Source of the DNA: a virus
Lineage: Duplodnaviria > Heunggongvirae > Uroviricota > Caudoviricetes
Direction: 5' to 3' (one strand)
DNA: 36,377 nt
Virus record (IMG/VR): IMGVR_UViG_2917398303_000003
Position numbers and translations under genes: made by a program. This document shows positions 1 through 10,638 of the stretch, in pieces (the first letter of the stretch is position 1; each line of letters begins with the position of its first letter). The notes under the pieces are model-generated. The model did not search any database. It was not told where the DNA came from and saw only the letters and a list, made by a program, of their open reading frames with translations.

Positions 1-1053
1 TTACGGGGTAATGCCAACCGCTGCCGCCACTTTGTCGCCACTTGGCAGCGTTGCCAGAGGATTGAAACGGAGCGCCGTTTCCAGATGATCCGGTGCCAGA
101 TGTGCGTAACGCATAGTCATTTTTATATCGTGGTGTCCGAGAATTTTTTGTAAGGCCAGAATGTTTCCACCCGACATCATGAAGTGCGCCGCAAACGTAT
201 GGCGCAGAACGTGTGTGAGTTGACCGCGAGGGAGCACGATAGACGTTTTTTCCATCACGGATAAAAATTGAAAATAGCAATCTGTGAAGAAATTGAACCC
301 ATCAAGCGCCATGATCTCTTCGTAAAGCTCTTTACTGATAGGGATGCTTCTGTTTTTCTTCCCCTTCGTTCTGACAAAGGTAATTCGGTATTTGGTCACC
401 TGTGAGCGGGTAAGATTTACGGCTTCACGCCATCGTGCGCCTGTGCTTAAGCATATCTTAACTACCAGTGCCAGAATTGGGTCCTGACGTTTGCAATCAG
501 CCAGCAATTCAACAATCTGCTCATGGGTAAGCCATGCCATCTCTTTTTCTGCGATGGTGAATTTTCGCATGTTCTCCAGTGGGTTCGGATACGACCATTC
601 GCCCAGACGGGATAGTTCGCTAAAAACACTACTTAGATAGCTTTGCTCCAGGTTAATGGTGACCGGGCTGGCTCCTTTCTTCCATTTCTCGCTGAAGTAG
701 ATCTCACCTGTCAGTCGTTTATCTCGATAATGGGCAAACATTTTAGATGTGAGATCGGTTGCAAGGGGATTGCCCAGAGCGTCAACCATCAGCAGCAATT
801 TGTCATAGACATGCTGCCCAGCAGTCAGAGATTTACCATGTAGTTTGAACCATAGTTCAACTACGTCTTTCAGTGTTCGACGATCCACTGATTCACCCAG
901 CCAGGGCTTTGCTTCGGTTTCTTCCATCGTGTGGCGCTCAAAAGCCAGAGCTTCGCCTTTGGTGGCGAATTGTTTACGCACACGACGCCCACTGCGTCCG
1001 GCGGGGTAACATTCGCAAAGCCATTTTCCTGTGGTGAGTTTTCGTACTGCCAT
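1..1053 (-). CDS. int: Tyrosine integrase (P2/186 Int family)
   Basis: ORF track 1..1131 (-). Start placed at the internal Met (MAVRKLTTGKW...) at 1053, which has a GGAGGG RBS 7 nt upstream; stop is at 1-3. C-terminal catalytic region HVLRHTFAAHF...GHHDIKMTMRYAHL fits the tyrosine-recombinase R-H-R-Y signature. Position at the prophage end next to cI. Confidence 0.9.
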   Translation of the reverse strand: MAVRKLTTGKWLCECYPAGRSGRRVRKQFATKGEALAFERHTMEETEAKPWLGESVDRRTLKDVVELWFKLHGKSLTAGQHVYDKLLLMVDALGNPLATDLTSKMFAHYRDKRLTGEIYFSEKWKKGASPVTINLEQSYLSSVFSELSRLGEWSYPNPLENMRKFTIAEKEMAWLTHEQIVELLADCKRQDPILALVVKICLSTGARWREAVNLTRSQVTKYRITFVRTKGKKNRSIPISKELYEEIMALDGFNFFTDCYFQFLSVMEKTSIVLPRGQLTHVLRHTFAAHFMMSGGNILALQKILGHHDIKMTMRYAHLAPDHLETALRFNPLATLPSGDKVAAAVGITP

Positions 1054-1239
1054 AAAAAATGCCCTCCAGTAGAGAGCATTTTTACTGTATGTATAACCAG
1101 TGTCAATGTATGAAATCCTGCGACCATACATCTCACTGAAGCCATAATGAAGTTAGCTATTTTTTGCTATGTGAGTATGTGACTTTTGCGGTTAGCCTGC
1201 GGCTCATTGTTATATTAGGCGCAGATATAAAAGCAAAAT

Positions 1240-1431
1240 TTATCGCGAGTTTTTAGTACAGATTTTTTTTGATTTACTAATAGTTCCATCATTGCAAACG
1301 AACTTTCCATCGGAGGTACAGTGAGAGACACCTCCCTTTTTCCCAGAACAAGGATAATTTTTAGCATAGGTAGTTAGTGGGTTTAATAACAAAGAGCATG
1401 ATAAAACCACAAAAAATACCTTACCAAGCAT
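1240..1431 (-). CDS. Small secreted basic Cys-rich peptide (63 aa, predicted signal peptide); cargo between cI and int
   Basis: ORF track. N-terminal [23 protein letters not shown] looks like a Sec signal peptide. Predicted mature part is ~40 aa, Lys-rich with 4 Cys. GGAGG RBS 5 nt upstream of the ATG. Starts 16 nt after the cI stop on the same strand. Region is AT-rich by eye. Confidence 0.5.
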
Positions 1432-1446: not shown

Positions 1447-2103
1447 TTACCTAACGTACTTAATTGTTAAACTTATAATTTTACCAATTATTTCAACATC
1501 TTCTATCTTGCACTCGAAGGCTCTGTTTCCACCTTCAACGAAGATTCTTCCACCGGGTAAACGAGTAATGTCGCGGATTGTTATTTCGCCATCAATACTT
1601 ATTACCCATTTACCATCACGTATATCATCAAATTCTTTATCACAAATAAATTCAGAATTGTTATCTGTGATGACAAAAGGTTTTTTAAACGTAGAGGGTA
1701 GAAATCCCTTATCAAAAATATAAAAACCGTCTTCACGCAAGGCACCATCAGATAATACATATTTAGCAACTTCCATAGTATTTGTATTACCTGAAGTTTG
1801 CTTTGAACCATGTCCAGTTGTGAGCCAATTAAGCGAGGTGCCCGTTTCAAGGGCGCACTGGATTACCCAATCTGCCGGAAAAATATCACGCATATAGCGC
1901 GTTGCCATGGTGCTCTTAGAAACACCTAAATGATCACAGAGAGCCTGACGGGTACCGAACCCATATGCTTCAACCAAACGTTCTATGGCTTTCTTACCGC
2001 CGCTATTGAAATCCACATGTCCTCCAAAGAAATCCAAAATTCGTTGACAGATTCCAAAAGCGATCTTAAAGTTGAACCAGAAGTGTTCTTTTGGAGCCTT
2101 CAC
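1447..2103 (-). CDS. cI: CI-type immunity repressor (HTH); start codon uncertain (GTG at 2103 per track, or GTG at 2016 giving 189 aa)
   Basis: ORF track. HTH-like segment AIERLVEAYGFGTRQALCDHLGVSKSTMATRY. Divergent from apl/cII in the 186-type switch arrangement. An alternative in-frame GTG at 2016 is preceded by GGAGGA. Confidence 0.75.
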   Translation of the reverse strand: MKAPKEHFWFNFKIAFGICQRILDFFGGHVDFNSGGKKAIERLVEAYGFGTRQALCDHLGVSKSTMATRYMRDIFPADWVIQCALETGTSLNWLTTGHGSKQTSGNTNTMEVAKYVLSDGALREDGFYIFDKGFLPSTFKKPFVITDNNSEFICDKEFDDIRDGKWVISIDGEITIRDITRLPGGRIFVEGGNRAFECKIEDVEIIGKIISLTIKYVR

Positions 2104-4230: not shown

Positions 4231-5084
4231 GCACCATCCTGAAATGGGCGGGAAATAAAACCGCCATTATGTCCGAACTGAAAAAACATCTTCCTGCTGG
4301 CCCGCGACTGGTTGAACCTTTCGCGGGTTCATGTGCTGTGATGATGGAGACGGATTATCCCAGCTATCTGGTTGCGGATATTAATCCTGATTTAATCAAC
4401 CTCTATAAAAAGGTTGCCGCTGATTGTGAATCGTTTATATCTCGCGCCAGAGTTTTATTTGAGGAAGCAAACAGGGAGGTGGCTTATTACAACATAAGGC
4501 AGGAGTTTAATTACTCCACTGAAATTACTGATTTCATGAAAGCGGTATATTTCCTGTATCTCAATCGTCATGGTTACCGTGGGTTATGTCGCTATAACAA
4601 GAGCGGGCATTTCAACATTCCGTACGGTAATTATAAAAATCCGTATTTCCCTGAAAAAGAAATTCGCGCATTTGCAGAGAAAGCCCAGCGGGCAACGTTT
4701 ATCTGCGCGAGCTTTGATGAAACGCTGGCGATGCTGCAGGTGGGAGATGTGGTGTATTGCGATCCGCCTTATGACGGCACGTTTTCCGGTTATCACACTG
4801 ACGGCTTCACTGAAGATGACCAGTATCACCTGGCATCCGTTCTTGAACATCGATCATCTGAAGGTCATCCGGTCATTGTTTCTAACAGTGACACATCCCT
4901 GATTCGTTCGCTGTATCGCAATTTCACTCACCACTACATCAAGGCAAAACGCAGCATCGGCGTGTCGGCTGGCGAGAGTAAATCTGCAACAGAAATCATT
5001 GCTGTTTCCGGGGCGCGCTGCTGGGTGGGATTTGATCCTTCGCGTGGCGTGGATAGTTCTGCTGTGTACGAGGTGCGTGTATGA
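4227..5084 (+). CDS. dam: DNA adenine methyltransferase (Dam-like, N6-adenine MTase)
   Basis: ORF track 4167..5084. ATG at 4227 has a GGAGG RBS. SAM-binding EPFAGSCAV motif near the N-terminus and catalytic DPPY motif (CDPPYDGT). Confidence 0.85.
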
Positions 5085-7264
5085 GTCATGCCGATATGAG
5101 CGACTCTAGCGGCTTTAACGAGGCCGCTGCAGCATTTTCATGGAACGGCCCGAAAAAGGCCATAAACCCTTATCTGGACCCGGCGGAAGTTGCGCCGGTT
5201 TCTGCGCTTTCAAACCTGATCACTCTGTATGCTGCCGATAACGAGCAGGAACAGCTGCGCCGCGAGGAATTGAGTGAACAGGTCTGGGAGCGTTATTTCT
5301 TTAATGAATCCCGTGATCCTGTCCAGCGCGAAATGGAGCAGGATAAGCTCATTAGTCGGGCAAAGCTGGCGCATGAGCAGCAGCGTTTTAACCCGGACAT
5401 GGTCATTCTGGCGGACGTCAGCGCCCAGCCCACCCACATCAGCAAGCCGCTGATGCAACGTATCGAATACTTCAGCAGCCTGGGCAGGCCAAAGGCTTAT
5501 TCCCGCTATTTGCGTGAGACGATTAAGCCATGTCTGGAGCGACTGGATTGTGTACGCGACAGTCAGCTATCTACTTCTTTCCGTTTTATGGCAAGCCATC
5601 AAGGGCTGGAGGGCCTGCTGATCCTGCCTGAAATGAGTCAGGATCAGGTGAAACGCCTGTCCACCCTGGTAGCTGCGCATATGAGCATGTGTCTTGAGGC
5701 CGCTTGTGGTGATTTGTATACCAACGATGACGTAAAGCCAGAAGAAATCCGCAAGACATGGGAAAAAGTGGCAGCGGAAACCCTGCGTCTGGATGTTATC
5801 CCGCCTGCGTTTGAGAAACTTCGTCGGAAAAGAAACCGCCGCAAACCTGTGCCCTATGAACTCATACCGGGTTCGCTGGCACGTATGCTTTGCGCCGACT
5901 GGTGGTATCGAAAATTGTGGAAGATGCGTTGCGAATGGCGGGAAGAGCAGTTGCGCGCTGTCTGCCTGGTCAGCAAAAAAGCATCTCCTTATGTCAGCTA
6001 TGAAGCCGTGATGCATAAACGTGAGCAGCGCCGTAAGTCGCTGGAGTTTTTCCGTTCTCATGAACTGGTGAACGAAGACGGCGACACGCTGGACATGGAG
6101 GATGTGGTAAACGCCAGCAGCAGCAACCCTGCGCATCGCCGCAATGAGATGATGGCCTGTGTTAAAGGTCTGGAACTTATCGCGGAAATGCGCGGTGACT
6201 GCGCCGTTTTCTACACCATCACCTGTCCGTCACGTTTCCATTCCACGCTAAATAACGGCAGGCCCAACCCGACCTGGACAAATGCGACGGTAAGACAAAG
6301 CAGTGATTATTTGGTCGGCATGTTTGCTGCATTTCGTAAGGCGATGCACAAAGCCGGATTGCGCTGGTATGGCGTGCGGGTGGCTGAGCCGCATCATGAC
6401 GGTACAGTTCACTGGCACCTGTTGTGTTTTATGCGCAAAAAAGACCGCCGCGCCATCACTGCATTACTGCGTAAGTTTGCCATCCGTGAAGACCGCGAGG
6501 AGCTGGGCAATAACACGGGGCCGCGCTTTAAGTCTGAGTTGATTAACCCGCGCAAAGGAACGCCGACAAGCTACATCGCGAAATATATCAGTAAGAACAT
6601 TGACGGGCGTGGTCTGGCTAGCGAGATCAGCAAGGAAACGGGTAAATCCCTGCGTGATAACGCTGAATACGTGAATGCCTGGGCGTCTCTGCATCGTGTT
6701 CAGCAATTCCGCTTCTTTGGTATTCCGGGGCGTCAGGCTTATCGTGAACTGCGATTGCTGGCTGGTCAGGCGGCAAGGCAGCAGGGTGACAAAAAAGCAG
6801 GTGCGCCGGTACTGGATAACCCACGCCTTGATGCCATCCTGGCTGCTGCTGATGCTGGTTGTTTTGCCACCTACATCATGAAGCAGGGGGGCGTACTGGT
6901 TCCCCGCAAATATCACCTCATCAGAACCGCTTATGAAATCAACGAAGAGCCGACCGCCTATGGTGATCACGGCATTCGTATTTATGGCATCTGGTCACCC
7001 ATTGCAGAGGGCAAGATCTGTACTCATGCAGTGAAGTGGAAAATGGTTCGTAAGGCCGTTGACGTTAAGGAGGCGGCAGCCGACCAGGGCGCTTGCGCCC
7101 CTTGGACTCGTGGCAATAACTGTCCCCTTGGACTCGTGGCAATAACTGTCCCCTTGCTGAAAATTTGTACCAACAAGGGAAAGACAAATCAGCTGATGGG
7201 GATACCAGAACGGATATCACCCGTATGGATGACAAGGAGTTGCACGATTACCTGCACAGTATGA
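5081..7264 (+). CDS. A: Replication initiation protein A (rolling-circle HUH endonuclease), reading frame interrupted near the 3' end
   Basis: ORF track (727 aa). HUH-like motif TVHWHLLCF and paired tyrosines YIAKYISK. Start overlaps the dam stop (ATGA). Position matches P2 gene A. The last ~55 codons are read through a 26-bp tandem duplication and look frameshifted. Confidence 0.85.
7101..7152 (+). repeat. Exact 26-bp direct tandem duplication (2 copies of cttggactcgtggcaataactgtccc) inside the 3' part of gene A
   Basis: Read directly: 7101..7126 and 7127..7152 are identical, followed by a partial third copy (cttg). Confidence 0.9.
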
Positions 7265-7521
7265 ACAAAAAAGAGCGCCGGGAACTGGCTGCAAGGTTAC
7301 GCCTGGTGAAACCGAAACGGCGTAGAGACTACAAACAGCGAATTACAGACCATCAACGACAGCAGCTCGTCTATGAACTGAAGTCCAGAGGATTTGATGG
7401 CAGCGAGAAAGAGGTCGATTTACTCCTTCGCGGCGGCAGCATTCCGTCAGGAGCAGGCCAGCGTGTCTTCTATCGGAACCAGCGTTTGCAGGAAGATGAT
7501 AAGTGGCGGAACTTGTATTAA
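7153..7521 (+). pseudogene. A: Displaced C-terminal segment of A (frame restored if one 26-bp repeat copy is removed)
   Basis: ORF track 7165..7521 (118 aa). Its frame is open upstream back through the repeat. Removing 26 bp puts it in frame with the A ORF. Confidence 0.6.
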
Positions 7522-7616
7522 TTACGCTGATTAACAATTAATGCTCTAAATAATAAGCAAAGGATAAATCCTATTGATTTTAAAAAAACTTTTTACTTTA
7601 ACGATATTATTATGTA

Positions 7617-7632
7617 CTGTATGTAAAACCAG
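7617..7632 (+). promoter_or_regulatory. LexA-box-like motif (CTGT-N8-CCAG) in an AT-rich promoter-like region upstream of the DinI-like pair
   Basis: Sequence CTGTATGTAAAACCAG; the LexA consensus is CTGT-N8-ACAG, so there is one mismatch in the right half-site. Overlapping TATTAT hexamers lie at 7605..7613. Confidence 0.35.
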
Positions 7633-7679
7633 TGGTTAAGTATACAGTATTGTCTACCCACAGTGAGATAGGAGGGAAG

Positions 7680-7868
7680 ATGCAGGATTATTTTTTGGAG
7701 TCGTTGAAACTCCAGCGAATTGATTTTTTTCTTAAGCTTGTAGTGGCCAGTGAATGTAGTGATCAGGAAAAAGAGCTTGCGCTGCTTTGGATTTCAGAAC
7801 TGACGGATGAACTCATGGCAAAAATCAGAACCCACGAATATAACCGCTCAATGGATGTTGTTAACTGA
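7680..7868 (+). CDS. Hypothetical protein (62 aa from ATG 7680), first gene of a putative SOS-inducible pair
   Basis: ORF track 7632..7868. ATG at 7680 has a GGAGGG RBS. Confidence 0.5.
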   Translation: MQDYFLESLKLQRIDFFLKLVVASECSDQEKELALLWISELTDELMAKIRTHEYNRSMDVVN

Positions 7869-7878
7869 GGGGTAATTT

Positions 7879-8112
7879 ATGCGCATTGAAATAATGATCG
7901 ATAAAGAGCAAAAAATTAGCCAGTCTACCCTGGACGCCCTTGAATCCGAGCTTTACCGCAATCTGCGCCCCTTGTATCCAAAAACGGTAATCCGCATCCG
8001 CAAAGGTAGCTCTAACGGTGTGGAACTGACCGGACTGAAACTGGACGAAGAAAAAAAACAAGTGATGAAAATTATGCAGAAGGTGTGGGAAGACGACAGC
8101 TGGCTGCATTAA
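7879..8112 (+). CDS. DinI-family protein (Tum C-terminal domain-like)
   Basis: ORF track (77 aa). MRIEIMIDK...LDALESEL...KIMQKVWEDDSWLH aligns by eye with E. coli DinI (MRIEV...IDALAGEL...ILQETWESADDW). GAGGGG RBS 6 nt upstream. Confidence 0.7.
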   Translation: MRIEIMIDKEQKISQSTLDALESELYRNLRPLYPKTVIRIRKGSSNGVELTGLKLDEEKKQVMKIMQKVWEDDSWLH

Positions 8113-8225
8113 GAAACGTTGCCCCCAGGAGGATTCATTCTGATGGGGGCTAGTTTGGGCAACGAGTGAAACGAGGTGTAAGGTGGTCGGCCTGTTGGCA
8201 ACGTTGAAAAGCGAAAGCCGCAATA

Positions 8226-8645
8226 CTATAAATTAGTTTTTATTAGATAGTGCCTTTGTGCCCCTGCTTTAGGGAAATCAGGTAATGACATTTGAAGTAT
8301 ATAACCCTGTTTTTCATAAAAGGGGAGCGCCTGGAAGCTAAATGTATCGACAAGGCCATGAATACAACCGTTCATCAAACCTTCTTTCTCAGCCATGCTC
8401 ATAAGTTTGCTACCCAAACCGCCACTCCGTGCTGATTCACTCACCCAAAGATAATCAATACACAGCCATGGACCTTTCCTGTCCGCAATTAATCCACCTA
8501 CCATCTCTCCGATTTCATTTCTGCAGTAGACACCGATCTGTCCATTTTTACTAAAATCGATAAACTGAGCATTATAGCTTCTTAGCCCCGCTAACAGTTC
8601 TTCTCTATCATATTCAGTAACTTTATGAACTACTTGAATGTCCAT
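8226..8645 (-). CDS. GNAT-family N-acetyltransferase (139 aa), standalone cargo gene
   Basis: ORF track. Acetyl-CoA-binding motif of the R-x-x-G-x-G/A type ([11 protein letters not shown]). Opposite strand to neighbours. No adjacent small partner ORF is visible. Confidence 0.7.
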
Positions 8646-8905
8646 ACATATCCGTTTTAGTGATTATTTTATTCAGTGCTAAATGTTATAGATAAGTTTC
8701 CTTTATGTTTCAATGCATTGTTGTAAATTAAATCAATTTACCATTTCCGGGTCCCCGTTCCTTGCTCACAGCGAACCTTTAGCTTTGTTAGCTCGAATGT
8801 GTCGGTTTTCAAGTGGTCAATCAGATACGTACCTTCACCCCACTCGTTAGTGCATGTCTATGCCGCATGAATCCGCATGATCGTTTGAGGATCGTTTTTG
8901 CTGAG

Positions 8906-8931
8906 GCCCCCCCAGAACTGGCGGGCTTTTT
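8906..8931 (+). terminator. Candidate rho-independent terminator (GC-rich imperfect stem followed by TTTTT)
   Basis: ggcccccccagaactggcgggc can form a ~6-bp GC stem with one bulge, followed by ttttt at 8927..8931. Lies in the GC-richer cos-proximal segment. Confidence 0.3.
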
Positions 8932-8976
8932 GCTTATGTCATGCAGGTGCATGAAAATCACTGCATAAAGCGGGCA

Positions 8977-8995
8977 GGCGTGGCGGGGATACGAG
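8977..8995. other. Candidate cos site (19-nt cohesive-end sequence, P2/186-like)
   Basis: GGCGTGGCGGGGATACGAG followed by CGCGCGCT. From memory, the P2 left end is GGCGAGGCGGGGAAAGCAC followed by TGCGCGCT, and the 186 end begins GGCGTGGCGGGGA. Recollection only, not verified. Confidence 0.45.
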
Positions 8996-9066
8996 CGCGC
9001 GCTTGTGTTGGCCTCATACAGTGAATTGTAAATTAGTTTTACATATGTTATATAAAAGTTACGTTT

Positions 9067-10638
9067 ATGAAAATTGGAAATTTCGCTGTGAAATTGAAGG
9101 ATATTTTTTTAGGTAGTACTGATGCAAAAAATGAGTTATTGGTAAACAGCCCTGAAGAAGTGGAACGTTTTAAAAAACTTTATGTTGTTCCACCTGCGCT
9201 ACTCATTGAAAAATATTATTCAAATGATAAGTATTTTATCTCTGGTTTAAAGGGAACAGGGAAAACAGCTTTACTGCGTTATATTGCCCTGAAGTTAGAT
9301 GAGTCTGATAAAATCCACTCAAAATTCATTCTGTTCAAATCAGAAGTTGATGAGGAATCAAGGAAAGAATTATCTAGGGCATCAAGGCTTGGTATTGAGG
9401 AGGTTTTAGAAAATAGTGCTGATTACGATATATCAGATTATGAGGCTGTTTGGCGATGGTTTATATATAAAGCTATATCTAAAATGATAATTGAAAACGA
9501 TTTGGATGTTTTTCAAAATACTCCTTCTCTTGCAAATTTTCATGCGATAGTAAGCTCGGAAGTAGCTATTAAAAACAGAACAGGAATTATGCGGTTGATT
9601 CCTACTATAAAAAAAGGAAATATAGAAATAAGTAAATCTCCCAAGCTTAACCTTGATTTAAACTGGGGGCAGGATGGCGTGGCAAAAGTTGGTTTCTCTA
9701 AATTGGTCAAAAGTATTGATGCTATTTTTGATGAGTTAGTCCCGTCAACAGCAAGATTGAACATATTTTTTGATGAGTTGGAATTAAATTATTCAACTAA
9801 CAAACAATATCAACGTGATTCTCTTCTTATAAGAGATTTGATAGTCGTAATTGAAAAAATTAATGCTTTAGCAAAACGAAAAGGTTTTAAAATTTGCCTT
9901 TATGCTGCTATTCGCTCAGAGGTTATGAATTCAGTGGTTGCTTTAGGAAAAGAAATTAACAAACCATTGACGGATTTTGGTACGGATATATTTTGGAATA
10001 GACCTGGTGTTACTTCTGCACAACAACCACTGCTTCATATCGTTGAGCAAAGAATTAATAATGCTAGAATTGAAAAAGGTTTAACTCCATTAGATGGAGC
10101 AAGTTTATGGAAAGAGTACTTTCCAGATATAATACATAATAAGATACCTCAGACTTATCTTTTACATAATTCATGGTATAGGCCTAGAGATATAGTTAGG
10201 TTATTATTATCTGCTCAAGAAAGTTATCCAGAAGAAACAAAGTTTTCTACGCAATCATTGGAAGCAATACGCAAAAGATATTCTCAATTATCTTGGGTTG
10301 AATTGTCTGAGGAGTTGAAGGCTAAATATAAATCTTCAGAGATTGAAGCAATCAAAACTATTTTTTATGGATATAAGCAAATATCAACTCTTAATGAGTT
10401 TACTCAACATTGTGATGAGTTAAAAGAGTTTTATCCAGAAGTTGTTGACTTGCTGAGAAATCATTCGACTATGGCTTTGCTTAAAGATTTATTCAGAATT
10501 GGCGTAATTGGTAATTTCGATAAGCCGGCTCAAACTGAAAAAGGTAAGATGCGGTGGTCATTTAGGGGGGATGAAAGTATTCTTCCAAATCAGAAAATTT
10601 ATGTGCATAATGCACTGATTGCCTATTTTTCAATCTAG
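9067..10638 (+). CDS. Uncharacterised P-loop NTPase (523 aa); candidate single-gene anti-phage defence protein
   Basis: ORF track. Walker A GLKGTGKT at 9244..9267. Two hhhhDE Walker-B-like motifs (AIFDELV and IFFDELEL) around 9730..9780. An arginine-containing YRPRDIVRLL segment follows. No SD; a possible sigma70 promoter (TTGTAA at 9027..9032, TATAAA at 9051..9056) would make the mRNA nearly leaderless. The gene is AT-rich by eye. Confidence 0.8.
   Translation: MKIGNFAVKLKDIFLGSTDAKNELLVNSPEEVERFKKLYVVPPALLIEKYYSNDKYFISGLKGTGKTALLRYIALKLDESDKIHSKFILFKSEVDEESRKELSRASRLGIEEVLENSADYDISDYEAVWRWFIYKAISKMIIENDLDVFQNTPSLANFHAIVSSEVAIKNRTGIMRLIPTIKKGNIEISKSPKLNLDLNWGQDGVAKVGFSKLVKSIDAIFDELVPSTARLNIFFDELELNYSTNKQYQRDSLLIRDLIVVIEKINALAKRKGFKICLYAAIRSEVMNSVVALGKEINKPLTDFGTDIFWNRPGVTSAQQPLLHIVEQRINNARIEKGLTPLDGASLWKEYFPDIIHNKIPQTYLLHNSWYRPRDIVRLLLSAQESYPEETKFSTQSLEAIRKRYSQLSWVELSEELKAKYKSSEIEAIKTIFYGYKQISTLNEFTQHCDELKEFYPEVVDLLRNHSTMALLKDLFRIGVIGNFDKPAQTEKGKMRWSFRGDESILPNQKIYVHNALIAYFSI

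Follow-up and report, generated by a model that had tools for sequence, protein, structure and literature searches.

Temperate phages related to 186 escape repression after DNA damage by means of the tum gene, which follows replication gene A and, in 186 itself, is expressed from p95, a promoter whose -10 hexamer, TACTGT, is annotated as the left end of a single, near-consensus LexA site. The 186 product is one 146-aa protein with a DinI-like C-terminal half, it acts on the CI repressor of the phage, and internal starts within the gene also yield a DinI-like product. In Fels-2 and PSP3, tum is split by a stop codon and the upstream half encodes the antirepressor (PMC3121763); in the PSP3 record, tumA ('UV induction of prophage') and tumB are annotated at the corresponding position, downstream of gene A. 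Induction of Fels-2 has been shown genetically to depend on LexA, and in the Escherichia coli HS prophage DuoHS mitomycin induction is abolished either by deletion of tum or by lexA(Ind-), which encodes a non-cleavable LexA (PMC12055606). A different arrangement of LexA sites is found in colicin and klebicin operons, where two 16-bp boxes have one base in common and govern the expression of toxin and lysis genes; the colicin double operators bind two LexA dimers and are very tightly repressed, with expression confined to rare cells (PMC2994835). On the far side of gene A, P2-like phages have a cos-adjacent slot between gpA and gpQ, a published hotspot of P2 that is home to tin and old and is rich in anti-phage genes (PMC9122126).

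Here we compare these systems with the corresponding region of a P2/186-like prophage, contained in a stretch of 36,377 nucleotides that we call the window. Its DNA-damage switch is of a kind already known, and the prophage is ordinary apart from the details described below. An earlier, sequence-only reading had delineated an accessory island to the left of cos, comprising a LexA-like promoter, a pair of small genes and an acetyltransferase of the GNAT superfamily, and when the sequence was re-read all of these elements were found in the positions assigned to them. We consider it likely that the island comprises two independent units: an SOS-controlled tum operon on the plus strand (7592-8112) and a GNAT cargo cassette (8123-8847) carried as a moron. 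The order of gene A, tum operon and cos is common to the window, 186, PSP3, Fels-2 and DuoHS, and DuoHS is syntenic with the window, occupying the same rcdA-ybjL region and encoding the same type of CI. Gene A of the window ends at 7521, directly 5' of the tum operon and on the same (plus) strand; it contains a frameshifting 26-bp duplication, and hence induction of this prophage may not give phage. Comparison with Rfam returned RybB at 33600-33678 as the sole match in the window, and no RNA family in the tum/GNAT region.

Together, the two small genes make up a tum operon in the split form (tumA/tumB) found in the PSP3/Fels-2 branch of 186-like phages. The first, a tumA-like gene of 62 aa (7680..7868, plus strand) preceded by AGGAGG at 7670-7675, matches phrog_698 (E 9.5e-36) and is predicted to encode an antirepressor of 186-type CI. 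Its product is 90% identical to Fels-2 STM2728 and 87% identical to ECHS_RS04495 of E. coli HS, which was identified as the DuoHS tum gene via the supplement of PMC12055606. The second, a tumB-like gene of 77 aa (7879..8112, plus strand), starts 10 nt past the tumA stop, which is overlapped by GAGGGG, and belongs to the DinI family (Pfam DinI, E 4.2e-23, 81.9 bits against a cut-off of 24.2). TumB shares 81% identity with its PSP3 counterpart and 40% with the DinI-like half of 186 Tum (residues 71-145). Against the NCBIfam equivalog for chromosomal DinI it scores 44.5, where the cut-off is 111, and it is therefore a DinI family member and not an orthologue of the host DinI. Neither TumA nor TumB matched a PADLOC-DB 2.0 family at E up to 0.1.

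The sequence-only reading had recognised a plus-strand unit of a 62-aa gene followed by a 77-aa DinI-family gene, and had likened it to the SOS-inducible tum arrangement of 186. Both observations hold, and the comparison can be made more precise: the form present here is the split tumA/tumB that is annotated in PSP3 and present in Fels-2, and an orthologue 87% identical to the window gene is required for LexA-dependent induction. As in the window, the split tum of PSP3, Fels-2 and DuoHS immediately follows gene A, is encoded on the same strand and consists of a gene of ~60 aa followed within 3-10 nt by a DinI-family gene of 77 aa, with a LexA operator at the promoter, whereas the cargo that follows tumB in these phages differs from that of the window. 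In 186, by contrast, the two halves are fused, and tum is followed by orf97 instead of a GNAT gene. The window TumA could not be aligned with PSP3 TumA by BLASTP and matches the N-terminus of 186 Tum weakly, with 25% identity over 36 aa (pairwise E 2e-5), so that the homology of all tumA genes rests on their position and on the Fels-2 and DuoHS orthologues.

Upstream of tumA, we predict an SOS promoter at 7592..7620 (plus strand), with TTTACT (7592-7597) and TACTGT (7615-7620) separated by a 17-nt spacer. The layout is that of p95, and the counterpart in relatives reads TTTACA-17 nt-TACTGT. This promoter and the one proposed below for the GNAT gene are matches made by eye; an automatic scan for promoters and terminators produced nothing useful in 7400-9200 and listed neither. 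A first predicted LexA box (7615..7634), the 20-mer TACTGTATGTAAAACCAGTG, overlaps the -10-like TACTGT, as at 186 p95, and is identical to the 186 p95 LexA site in 15 of 20 positions. Its core, CTGTATGTAAAACCAG, lies at 7617-7632 within the 20-mer and contains the CTGT-N8-CCAG that the sequence-only reading had pointed out, and the box is kept in relatives as CTGTAAATATAAACAG. Two TATTAT hexamers (7605-7610 and 7608-7613) that had been thought to overlap the box instead abut it. A second predicted box (7632..7647), GTGGTTAAGTATACAG, has one base in common with the first and would complete a double operator of the colicin type; its left half is poor (GTGG), and taken by itself this box would not pass for a LexA site. 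The resemblance to a LexA operator proposed earlier is borne out, whereas the single box envisaged then is replaced by two overlapping boxes, at 7617-7632 and 7632-7647.

The two-box pattern is found 5' of the 62-aa gene, in the same place, in 73 of the 80 relatives from IMG/VR, and also in Fels-2, DuoHS and Klebsiella phages. Among 49 distinct relatives, variation within the operator falls in the spacer and not in GTGG or ACAG. When sequences were searched with the pattern CTGT-N9-CAGTGG-N8-ACAG, it occurred once, at the operator position, in relatives and in Col plasmids, and was absent from 186 and PSP3, both of which have one box where the window, Fels-2 and DuoHS have two that overlap. 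A 51-nt query across the operator matched more than 1,000 Col-type plasmids; of the three matches inspected, each lies either just 5' of a colicin or klebicin gene or next to an exclusion gene of a colicin plasmid. The upstream regions of colicin Y and of a klebicin gene are 85-90% identical to the window operator over 42-48 nt. The predicted operator, composed of two overlapping LexA boxes, thus differs very little from the double SOS operator that colicin genes have, although what it would control is a prophage antirepressor and not a toxin and lysis operon.

The repressor on which this switch would act is encoded at 1447-2103 on the minus strand and is of the 186 type, having Phage_CI_repr and Phage_CI_C domains. 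A domain search found no S24 peptidase match in it, meaning that it is without a LexA-like self-cleavage domain and that an antirepressor is needed. The window CI is 31% identical to 186 CI and only 39% identical to that of Fels-2, though the TumA proteins of the window and Fels-2 are 90% identical, and so we infer the pairing of TumA with the window CI. In the lysogen, LexA would occupy both overlapping operators, covering the -10 region and the start of the p95-like promoter, and would keep the operon silent. Sustained DNA damage would then bring about RecA-stimulated cleavage of LexA and open the promoter, whereupon TumA would inactivate CI and allow the early lytic promoter to fire, while the co-transcribed, DinI-like TumB would probably associate with RecA filaments and adjust the SOS signal.

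Beyond tumB, a variable cargo cassette (8123..8847) lies between an anchor on the tumB side, which extends to 8122, and a conserved cos-proximal block (8848..9003) that begins at approximately 8848, is 87-93% identical to relatives and includes a cos-like sequence, GGCGTGGCGGGGATACGAG, at ~8977-8995. This block aligns to the linear 186 record at its right end and at its left end, where bases 1-19 are annotated as cos. Relatives with an empty slot have ~67 nt at the position of the cassette, and the distance from tumB to cos is variable among the 80 relatives. The cassette is located between gpA and gpQ, beside cos, and varies among relatives that are otherwise collinear; it occupies the site where P2 carries tin and old, as the sequence-only reading had maintained (PMC9122126), and shares with the P2 hotspot both its placement between the replication gene and cos or the portal gene and a content that is highly variable among relatives. 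The window prophage has a further slot to the right of cos, containing a 523-aa ATPase. Of 5,426 complete E. coli genomes, 7 have the whole cassette, while its first ~70 nt alone occur in ~200 E. coli genomes, in prophages without the GNAT. At 8121..8150, between the convergent tumB and GNAT genes, there is a G+C-rich hairpin (GCCCCCA / TGGGGGC) that may be a terminator, albeit one with no T-run, and the whole 126-nt stretch folded at this spacer does no better than shuffled sequences (z -1.1).

The cassette gene (8226..8645, minus strand) encodes a GNAT N-acetyltransferase of 139 aa, and its earlier identification is upheld by Pfam matches above the respective cut-offs to Acetyltransf_1 (40.6 bits against 20.7) and Acetyltransf_7 (38.1 bits against 27); NCBIfam provided a sub-threshold GNAT match only. 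The acetyl-CoA pyrophosphate-binding motif, R/Q-x-x-G-x-G/A, is present as R73-S-G-G76-L-G78, and R73, G78 and also Y110 are invariant in 37 homologues. The GNAT fold is assigned with confidence, and its matches are generic, among them N-terminal acetyltransferases and AAC(6')-Ii, which makes the class of substrate only a guess. In searches of PDB by sequence and by fold, its only company was that of generic GNAT enzymes and of structural-genomics proteins that are uncharacterised. Two of the latter, 1Y9W from Bacillus cereus and 2G3A from Agrobacterium tumefaciens (profile E 3.6e-23 and 4.7e-19), resemble it in length, at ~140 aa, and have in common with it the motif D-[ST]-F-S-F-Q-A-x-x-F-Y-x-K-x-G-Y; no function is given for either in the entries or papers found, and they offer no clue to the substrate. 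Among 50,697 phage records, tblastn recovered only matches of 35-38% identity, in Pseudomonas and Listeria phages. Closer homologues, 60-87% identical, are stand-alone chromosomal genes, and one that is 71% identical is a moron in a prophage of a different type, between replication-side and lysis-like genes. The 87%-identical copy in Salmonella has in common with the window the ORF and ~10 nt, with no cassette flanks, and for this reason a mobile unit is not definable.

A candidate promoter for the GNAT gene alone lies at 8685..8713 on the minus strand, where TTGAAA (8713-8708) and TATAAC (8690-8685) are separated by 17 nt; the assignment is a weak one. A terminator scan of 7400-9200 found none for the gene. 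There is no ORF of at least 25 aa on the same, minus strand on either side of 8226-8645, and this small-ORF check agrees with the earlier observation that no antitoxin gene adjoins the GNAT. On our reading, the GNAT is neither the toxin of a toxin-antitoxin system nor a member of the tum operon. Most likely, it is an independently expressed moron, that is, a host-benefiting passenger that would be transcribed in the lysogen from its own promoter, and our best guess for its substrate is a small-molecule amine, for instance an antibiotic or toxic metabolite.

Two other functions were weighed against this one. The GNAT might be a single-gene conflict enzyme, either anti-phage, acetylating a component of an incoming phage, or counter-defensive, disabling an immune protein of the host or of a rival; we regard this as unlikely, if the more serious of the two. 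Its location in the cos-adjacent gpA-gpQ slot speaks for it, since a published anti-phage hotspot favours a role in conflict over a metabolic one, and the slot turns over among relatives, in which its other occupants include TIR and HEPN proteins. The Salmonella copy lies near a SopE-domain gene, among HigBA, DUF2971 and 'GT4-conflict' genes. There is also an analogy in the anti-CRISPR AcrVA5, which acetylates and disables Cas12a, and whose best structural match is reported to be 1Y9W, the closest solved relative of the window protein (PMC8949011). Against this, AcrVA5 did not rank among the leading matches of the GNAT itself, whether by sequence or by fold, and the GNAT matches no described defence protein, a search of PADLOC-DB 2.0 at E up to 0.1 having returned no family. 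The hotspot study does include WP_087906142, an E. coli homologue nearly identical to the window protein, in its Table S5A, but the main text mentions neither GNAT proteins nor acetyltransferases (PMC9122126). The rarity of the cassette among complete E. coli genomes tells against a conflict role as well. The sequence-only reading had regarded homology to a housekeeping acetyltransferase in a host-like context as evidence against its view of the island, and such a context is found in part: homologues in Providencia, 62% identical, stand alone at a fixed chromosomal site beside mtlADR, pointing to a function unconnected with phage. The same reading had allowed for an orphan toxin. As a toxin like TacT, AtaT, KacT or ItaT, the GNAT would acetylate aminoacyl-tRNA and stop growth, its antitoxin having been lost or being encoded elsewhere. 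Like those toxins, the protein is a small GNAT carried on mobile DNA, here with no obvious partner, but the fold class is all that they have in common: no specific similarity is detectable, and neither the 60 PDB sequences that best matched the family profile nor the 50-60 leading fold matches included a solved GNAT toxin. GNAT toxins are ~160-175 aa in length and the window protein is shorter. Neither flank of the gene has an ORF the size of an antitoxin. Many chromosomes, moreover, carry a homologue as a single gene, with 1,243 sequences of the 87%-identical form from Salmonella, and a toxin with nothing to oppose it would hardly be retained in this way. An orphan toxin is thus very improbable.

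The tum operon, for its part, might not be an SOS switch at all, if the LexA-like sequence were fortuitous or vestigial and the small genes were expressed constitutively or by read-through from gene A. Searched for as the 16-mer by itself, with at most one mismatch allowed, the LexA motif is indeed no commoner in the window than expected by chance (16 matches against 11.75), the promoter scan lists no site at the operator, and a prophage with a frameshifted gene A may be decaying. Significance comes instead from the extended motif, from position and from conservation. The extended motif, TACTGTAT-N7-CAGT, has 2 matches in the window against 0.01 expected, an excess of ~200-fold; the double box keeps its position across Escherichia, Salmonella and Klebsiella relatives while the neighbouring bases vary; and its sequence is nearly that of the colicin operators. 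As the orthologous switch has been demonstrated genetically in DuoHS, and LexA dependence in Fels-2, we give this alternative scarcely any credence.

The tum switch is already understood and this instance of it adds little, except that the Fels-2/DuoHS branch places its antirepressor under a colicin-style double LexA operator, an arrangement associated with very tight repression and late induction, where 186 and PSP3 have one box. This difference in the number of boxes is a simple and testable explanation for any variation among related prophages in their spontaneous induction and induction threshold. The GNAT itself, a passenger that is rare and uncharacterised, lies in a slot rich in anti-phage genes. 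Close copies of the GNAT are fixed in Salmonella chromosomes, and it could be a phage-carried gene for resistance or detoxification, or else a new conflict enzyme. It is a doubtful proposition that P2-like prophages carry here a new single-gene conflict enzyme, acetylating a protein of an invading phage or an immune protein of the host or a rival in the manner of AcrVA5, and, separately, that the colicin-type double operator has been recruited to delay induction until damage is severe. If true, the GNAT would represent a new enzymatic class in the repertoire of the P2 hotspot.

The stretch is a P2/186-like (Peduoviridae) prophage. Its gene order begins with the integrase gene (1-1053, minus strand) and runs through a 186-type CI repressor gene (1447-2103, minus strand), Apl-like and CII genes, a Dam methylase gene, replication gene A (5081-7521), the tum/GNAT region and cos to a gene for a 523-aa ATPase (9067-10638, plus strand), after which come the portal gene and the late genes. 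The right end carries the RybB sRNA (33600-33678, minus strand, 105 bits) and a ybjL-like aspartate:alanine antiporter (33758-35443, minus strand), and the window therefore includes the host junction; the E. coli HS prophage DuoHS shares synteny with the window and occupies the same rcdA-ybjL region. Between cI and int, which are adjacent in 186 and Fels-2, there is an inserted 63-aa ORF (1240-1431, minus strand) that has several cysteines and an N-terminus resembling a signal peptide; in E. coli relatives it is annotated as hypothetical.

The leftward part of the region between gene A and cos is the previously described LexA-TumA-CI induction switch, accompanied by a DinI-like gene and placed here under a colicin-type double operator. 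Every coordinate in the sequence-only reading was reproduced when the sequence was re-read, including the 62-aa ORF (7680-7868, plus strand) and the 77-aa ORF (7879-8112, plus strand), whose DinI-family assignment was borne out by Pfam (E 4.2e-23). Phage 186 Tum is a LexA-controlled antirepressor of 146 aa with a DinI-like C-terminal half (phage 186 record), to which the 77-aa protein is 40% identical; identity to PSP3 TumB reaches 81%. PSP3 has tumA and tumB annotated at exactly this position, tumA being described as 'similar to 5' end 186 tum; UV induction of prophage', and the pair is also present in Fels-2; according to Lemire et al. (PMC3121763), a stop codon splits tum in both, the upstream part encoding the antirepressor. 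For the 62-aa protein, identity is 90% to Fels-2 STM2728 and 87% to ECHS_RS04495, the gene deleted as 'tum' in a study of E. coli HS in which mitomycin induction was abolished by that deletion and likewise by lexA(Ind-) (PMC12055606). The protein resembles the N-terminus of 186 Tum only weakly (25% over 36 aa), and no similarity to PSP3 TumA was found, as expected of a specificity determinant that follows immunity type. The split pair of PSP3 and Fels-2 and the DuoHS homologue thus support the proposal of an SOS-inducible unit resembling 186 tum.

A single LexA-like operator had been proposed at 7617-7632 (CTGT-N8-CCAG). That box is present (CTGTATGTAAAACCAG), and a second (GTGGTTAAGTATACAG, 7632-7647) overlaps it by one base, so that the operator is double. 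LexA-like 16-mers with one mismatch allowed are no more frequent in the window than chance predicts; the extended motif TACTGTAT-N7-CAGT occurs twice against 0.01 expected. A 51-nt query spanning both boxes matched more than 1,000 small Col-type plasmids; of three matches inspected, two immediately precede a colicin or klebicin gene, aligning with the double box nearly base-for-base, and the third adjoins a colicin-plasmid exclusion gene, downstream of which no gene is annotated. In 73 of 80 IMG/VR relatives there is one copy of the pattern CTGT-N9-CAGTGG-N8-ACAG, at the corresponding position, as there is in Fels-2, DuoHS, a Klebsiella phage and E. coli phage 500465-1; a pattern search did not find it in 186 or PSP3. 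Among 49 distinct relatives, variable positions fall in the box 2 spacer and downstream of box 2, and none in the LexA contact triplets. The layout of p95, the annotated LexA-controlled tum promoter of 186, is matched by TTTACT, 17 nt and TACTGT, the last forming the left end of box 1; this would be the tum promoter, with LexA predicted to bind at the boxes.

The CI repressor has both 186-CI domains, and a domain search found no self-cleavage domain, so that induction requires an antirepressor route. TumA is 90% identical to that of Fels-2, whereas overall identity between the CI repressors is only 39%; roughly 70% of this identity lies in the N-terminal helix-turn-helix domain, as judged by reading the alignment, which hints that this domain may be the target of TumA.

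Other features left of the tum unit were observed. A second LexA-like 20-mer (TACTGTATGTATAACCAGTG, 1083-1102, minus strand) is 19/20 identical to the tum-side box (24/29 over 1083-1111) and sits within the spacer of a promoter-like site (TTGACA at 1108-1103, 16-17 nt, TAAAAAT). The likely integrase start (ATG at 1053, MAVRKL...) follows about 30 nt downstream, with a hairpin, AAAAATGC-N13-GCATTTTT, directly before it. E. coli M7424 retains the core CTG-N10-CAG, and E. coli B/BL21 has the region at 99% identity, whereas Fels-2 and 186 lack the site; it may be an SOS-controlled int promoter. In gene A, an exact 26-bp tandem duplication (7098-7149, CCCCTTGGACTCGTGGCAATAACTGT twice) causes a frameshift, yielding ORFs of 727 and 118 aa, and may leave the prophage defective. 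It aligns with sequence around the annotated replication origin (nick site) of 186 and recurs in a single further IMG/VR contig that diverged independently (L070), 80 other loci being single-copy; aberrant rolling-circle initiation or termination at ori could generate it repeatedly.

The remainder of the region (8123-8847) is most likely a moron separate from the tum unit, whose 139-aa GNAT product (8226-8645, minus strand) is predicted to be an acetyl-CoA-dependent N-acetyltransferase. Relatives share the anchors (up to 8122, and from about 8848) and vary between them; where the slot is empty, phages have about 67 nt, and the tumB-to-cos distance takes many values among 80 relatives, only two of which carry the GNAT. 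The full cassette was found in 7 of 5,426 complete E. coli genomes and in five P2-like IMG/VR contigs. Since cos lies at about 8977-8995, the GNAT is left of it and the ATPase right. The gpA-gpQ region is a published P2 hotspot, holding tin and old in P2 itself, and a near-identical E. coli homologue, WP_087906142, is listed in Table S5A of that study (PMC9122126).

The protein, rightly assigned to the GNATs from sequence, retains R73-x-x-G76-x-G78 and an invariant Y110, and its confident predicted model matches a generic GNAT fold, the nearest solved relatives (1Y9W and 2G3A) being uncharacterised. Small-molecule detoxification or modification is its most likely role. Stand-alone chromosomal genes encode homologues 60-70% identical to it; one occupies a fixed site adjoining mtlADR in Providencia, and another is carried by an integrative element of Salmonella. 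An 87%-identical copy, widespread in Salmonella near a SopE-domain gene, has only the ORF itself in common with the cassette. The orphan toxin envisaged earlier is unlikely; the flanks have no antitoxin-sized ORF, as had been noted, and sequence and fold searches detected no relation to solved GNAT toxins. A conflict role is a less likely possibility. PADLOC gave no match to the GNAT.

Further cargo was noted elsewhere. The ATPase, a P-loop protein (NCBIfam 'Sll1717 family', E 3.4e-89; phrog_13260, of unknown function), occupies a second slot, between cos and the portal gene, where relatives have other genes; it is a candidate single-gene defence protein, with marginal PADLOC matches only (mad8, 4e-4) and no mention of Sll1717 found in a literature search. 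Between the tail-fibre assembly and sheath genes, in the second moron region (Z/fun locus) of P2-like phages, lies a gene for a 377-aa membrane acyltransferase (24920-26053, minus strand; Pfam Acyl_transf_3, E 2.7e-26), which probably acetylates O-antigen or a surface sugar in lysogenic conversion; with the GNAT, the prophage thus has two unrelated acyl/acetyl-transferase morons. A 271-aa ORF (19165-19980, minus strand) amid plus-strand tail genes, with no match in Pfam or PADLOC, may be a third moron.

As hotspot cargo, the GNAT is a new, uncharacterised member of a class already known. A different type of prophage carries a 71%-identical copy as a moron (L117, IMG/VR contig 3300011546_000031, 4001-4429), a lone gene flanked by replication-side and lysis-like ORFs; the prophage is apparently lambdoid, as judged from ORF translations rather than by search. 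If that type is right, the GNAT family would be a recurrent prophage moron.
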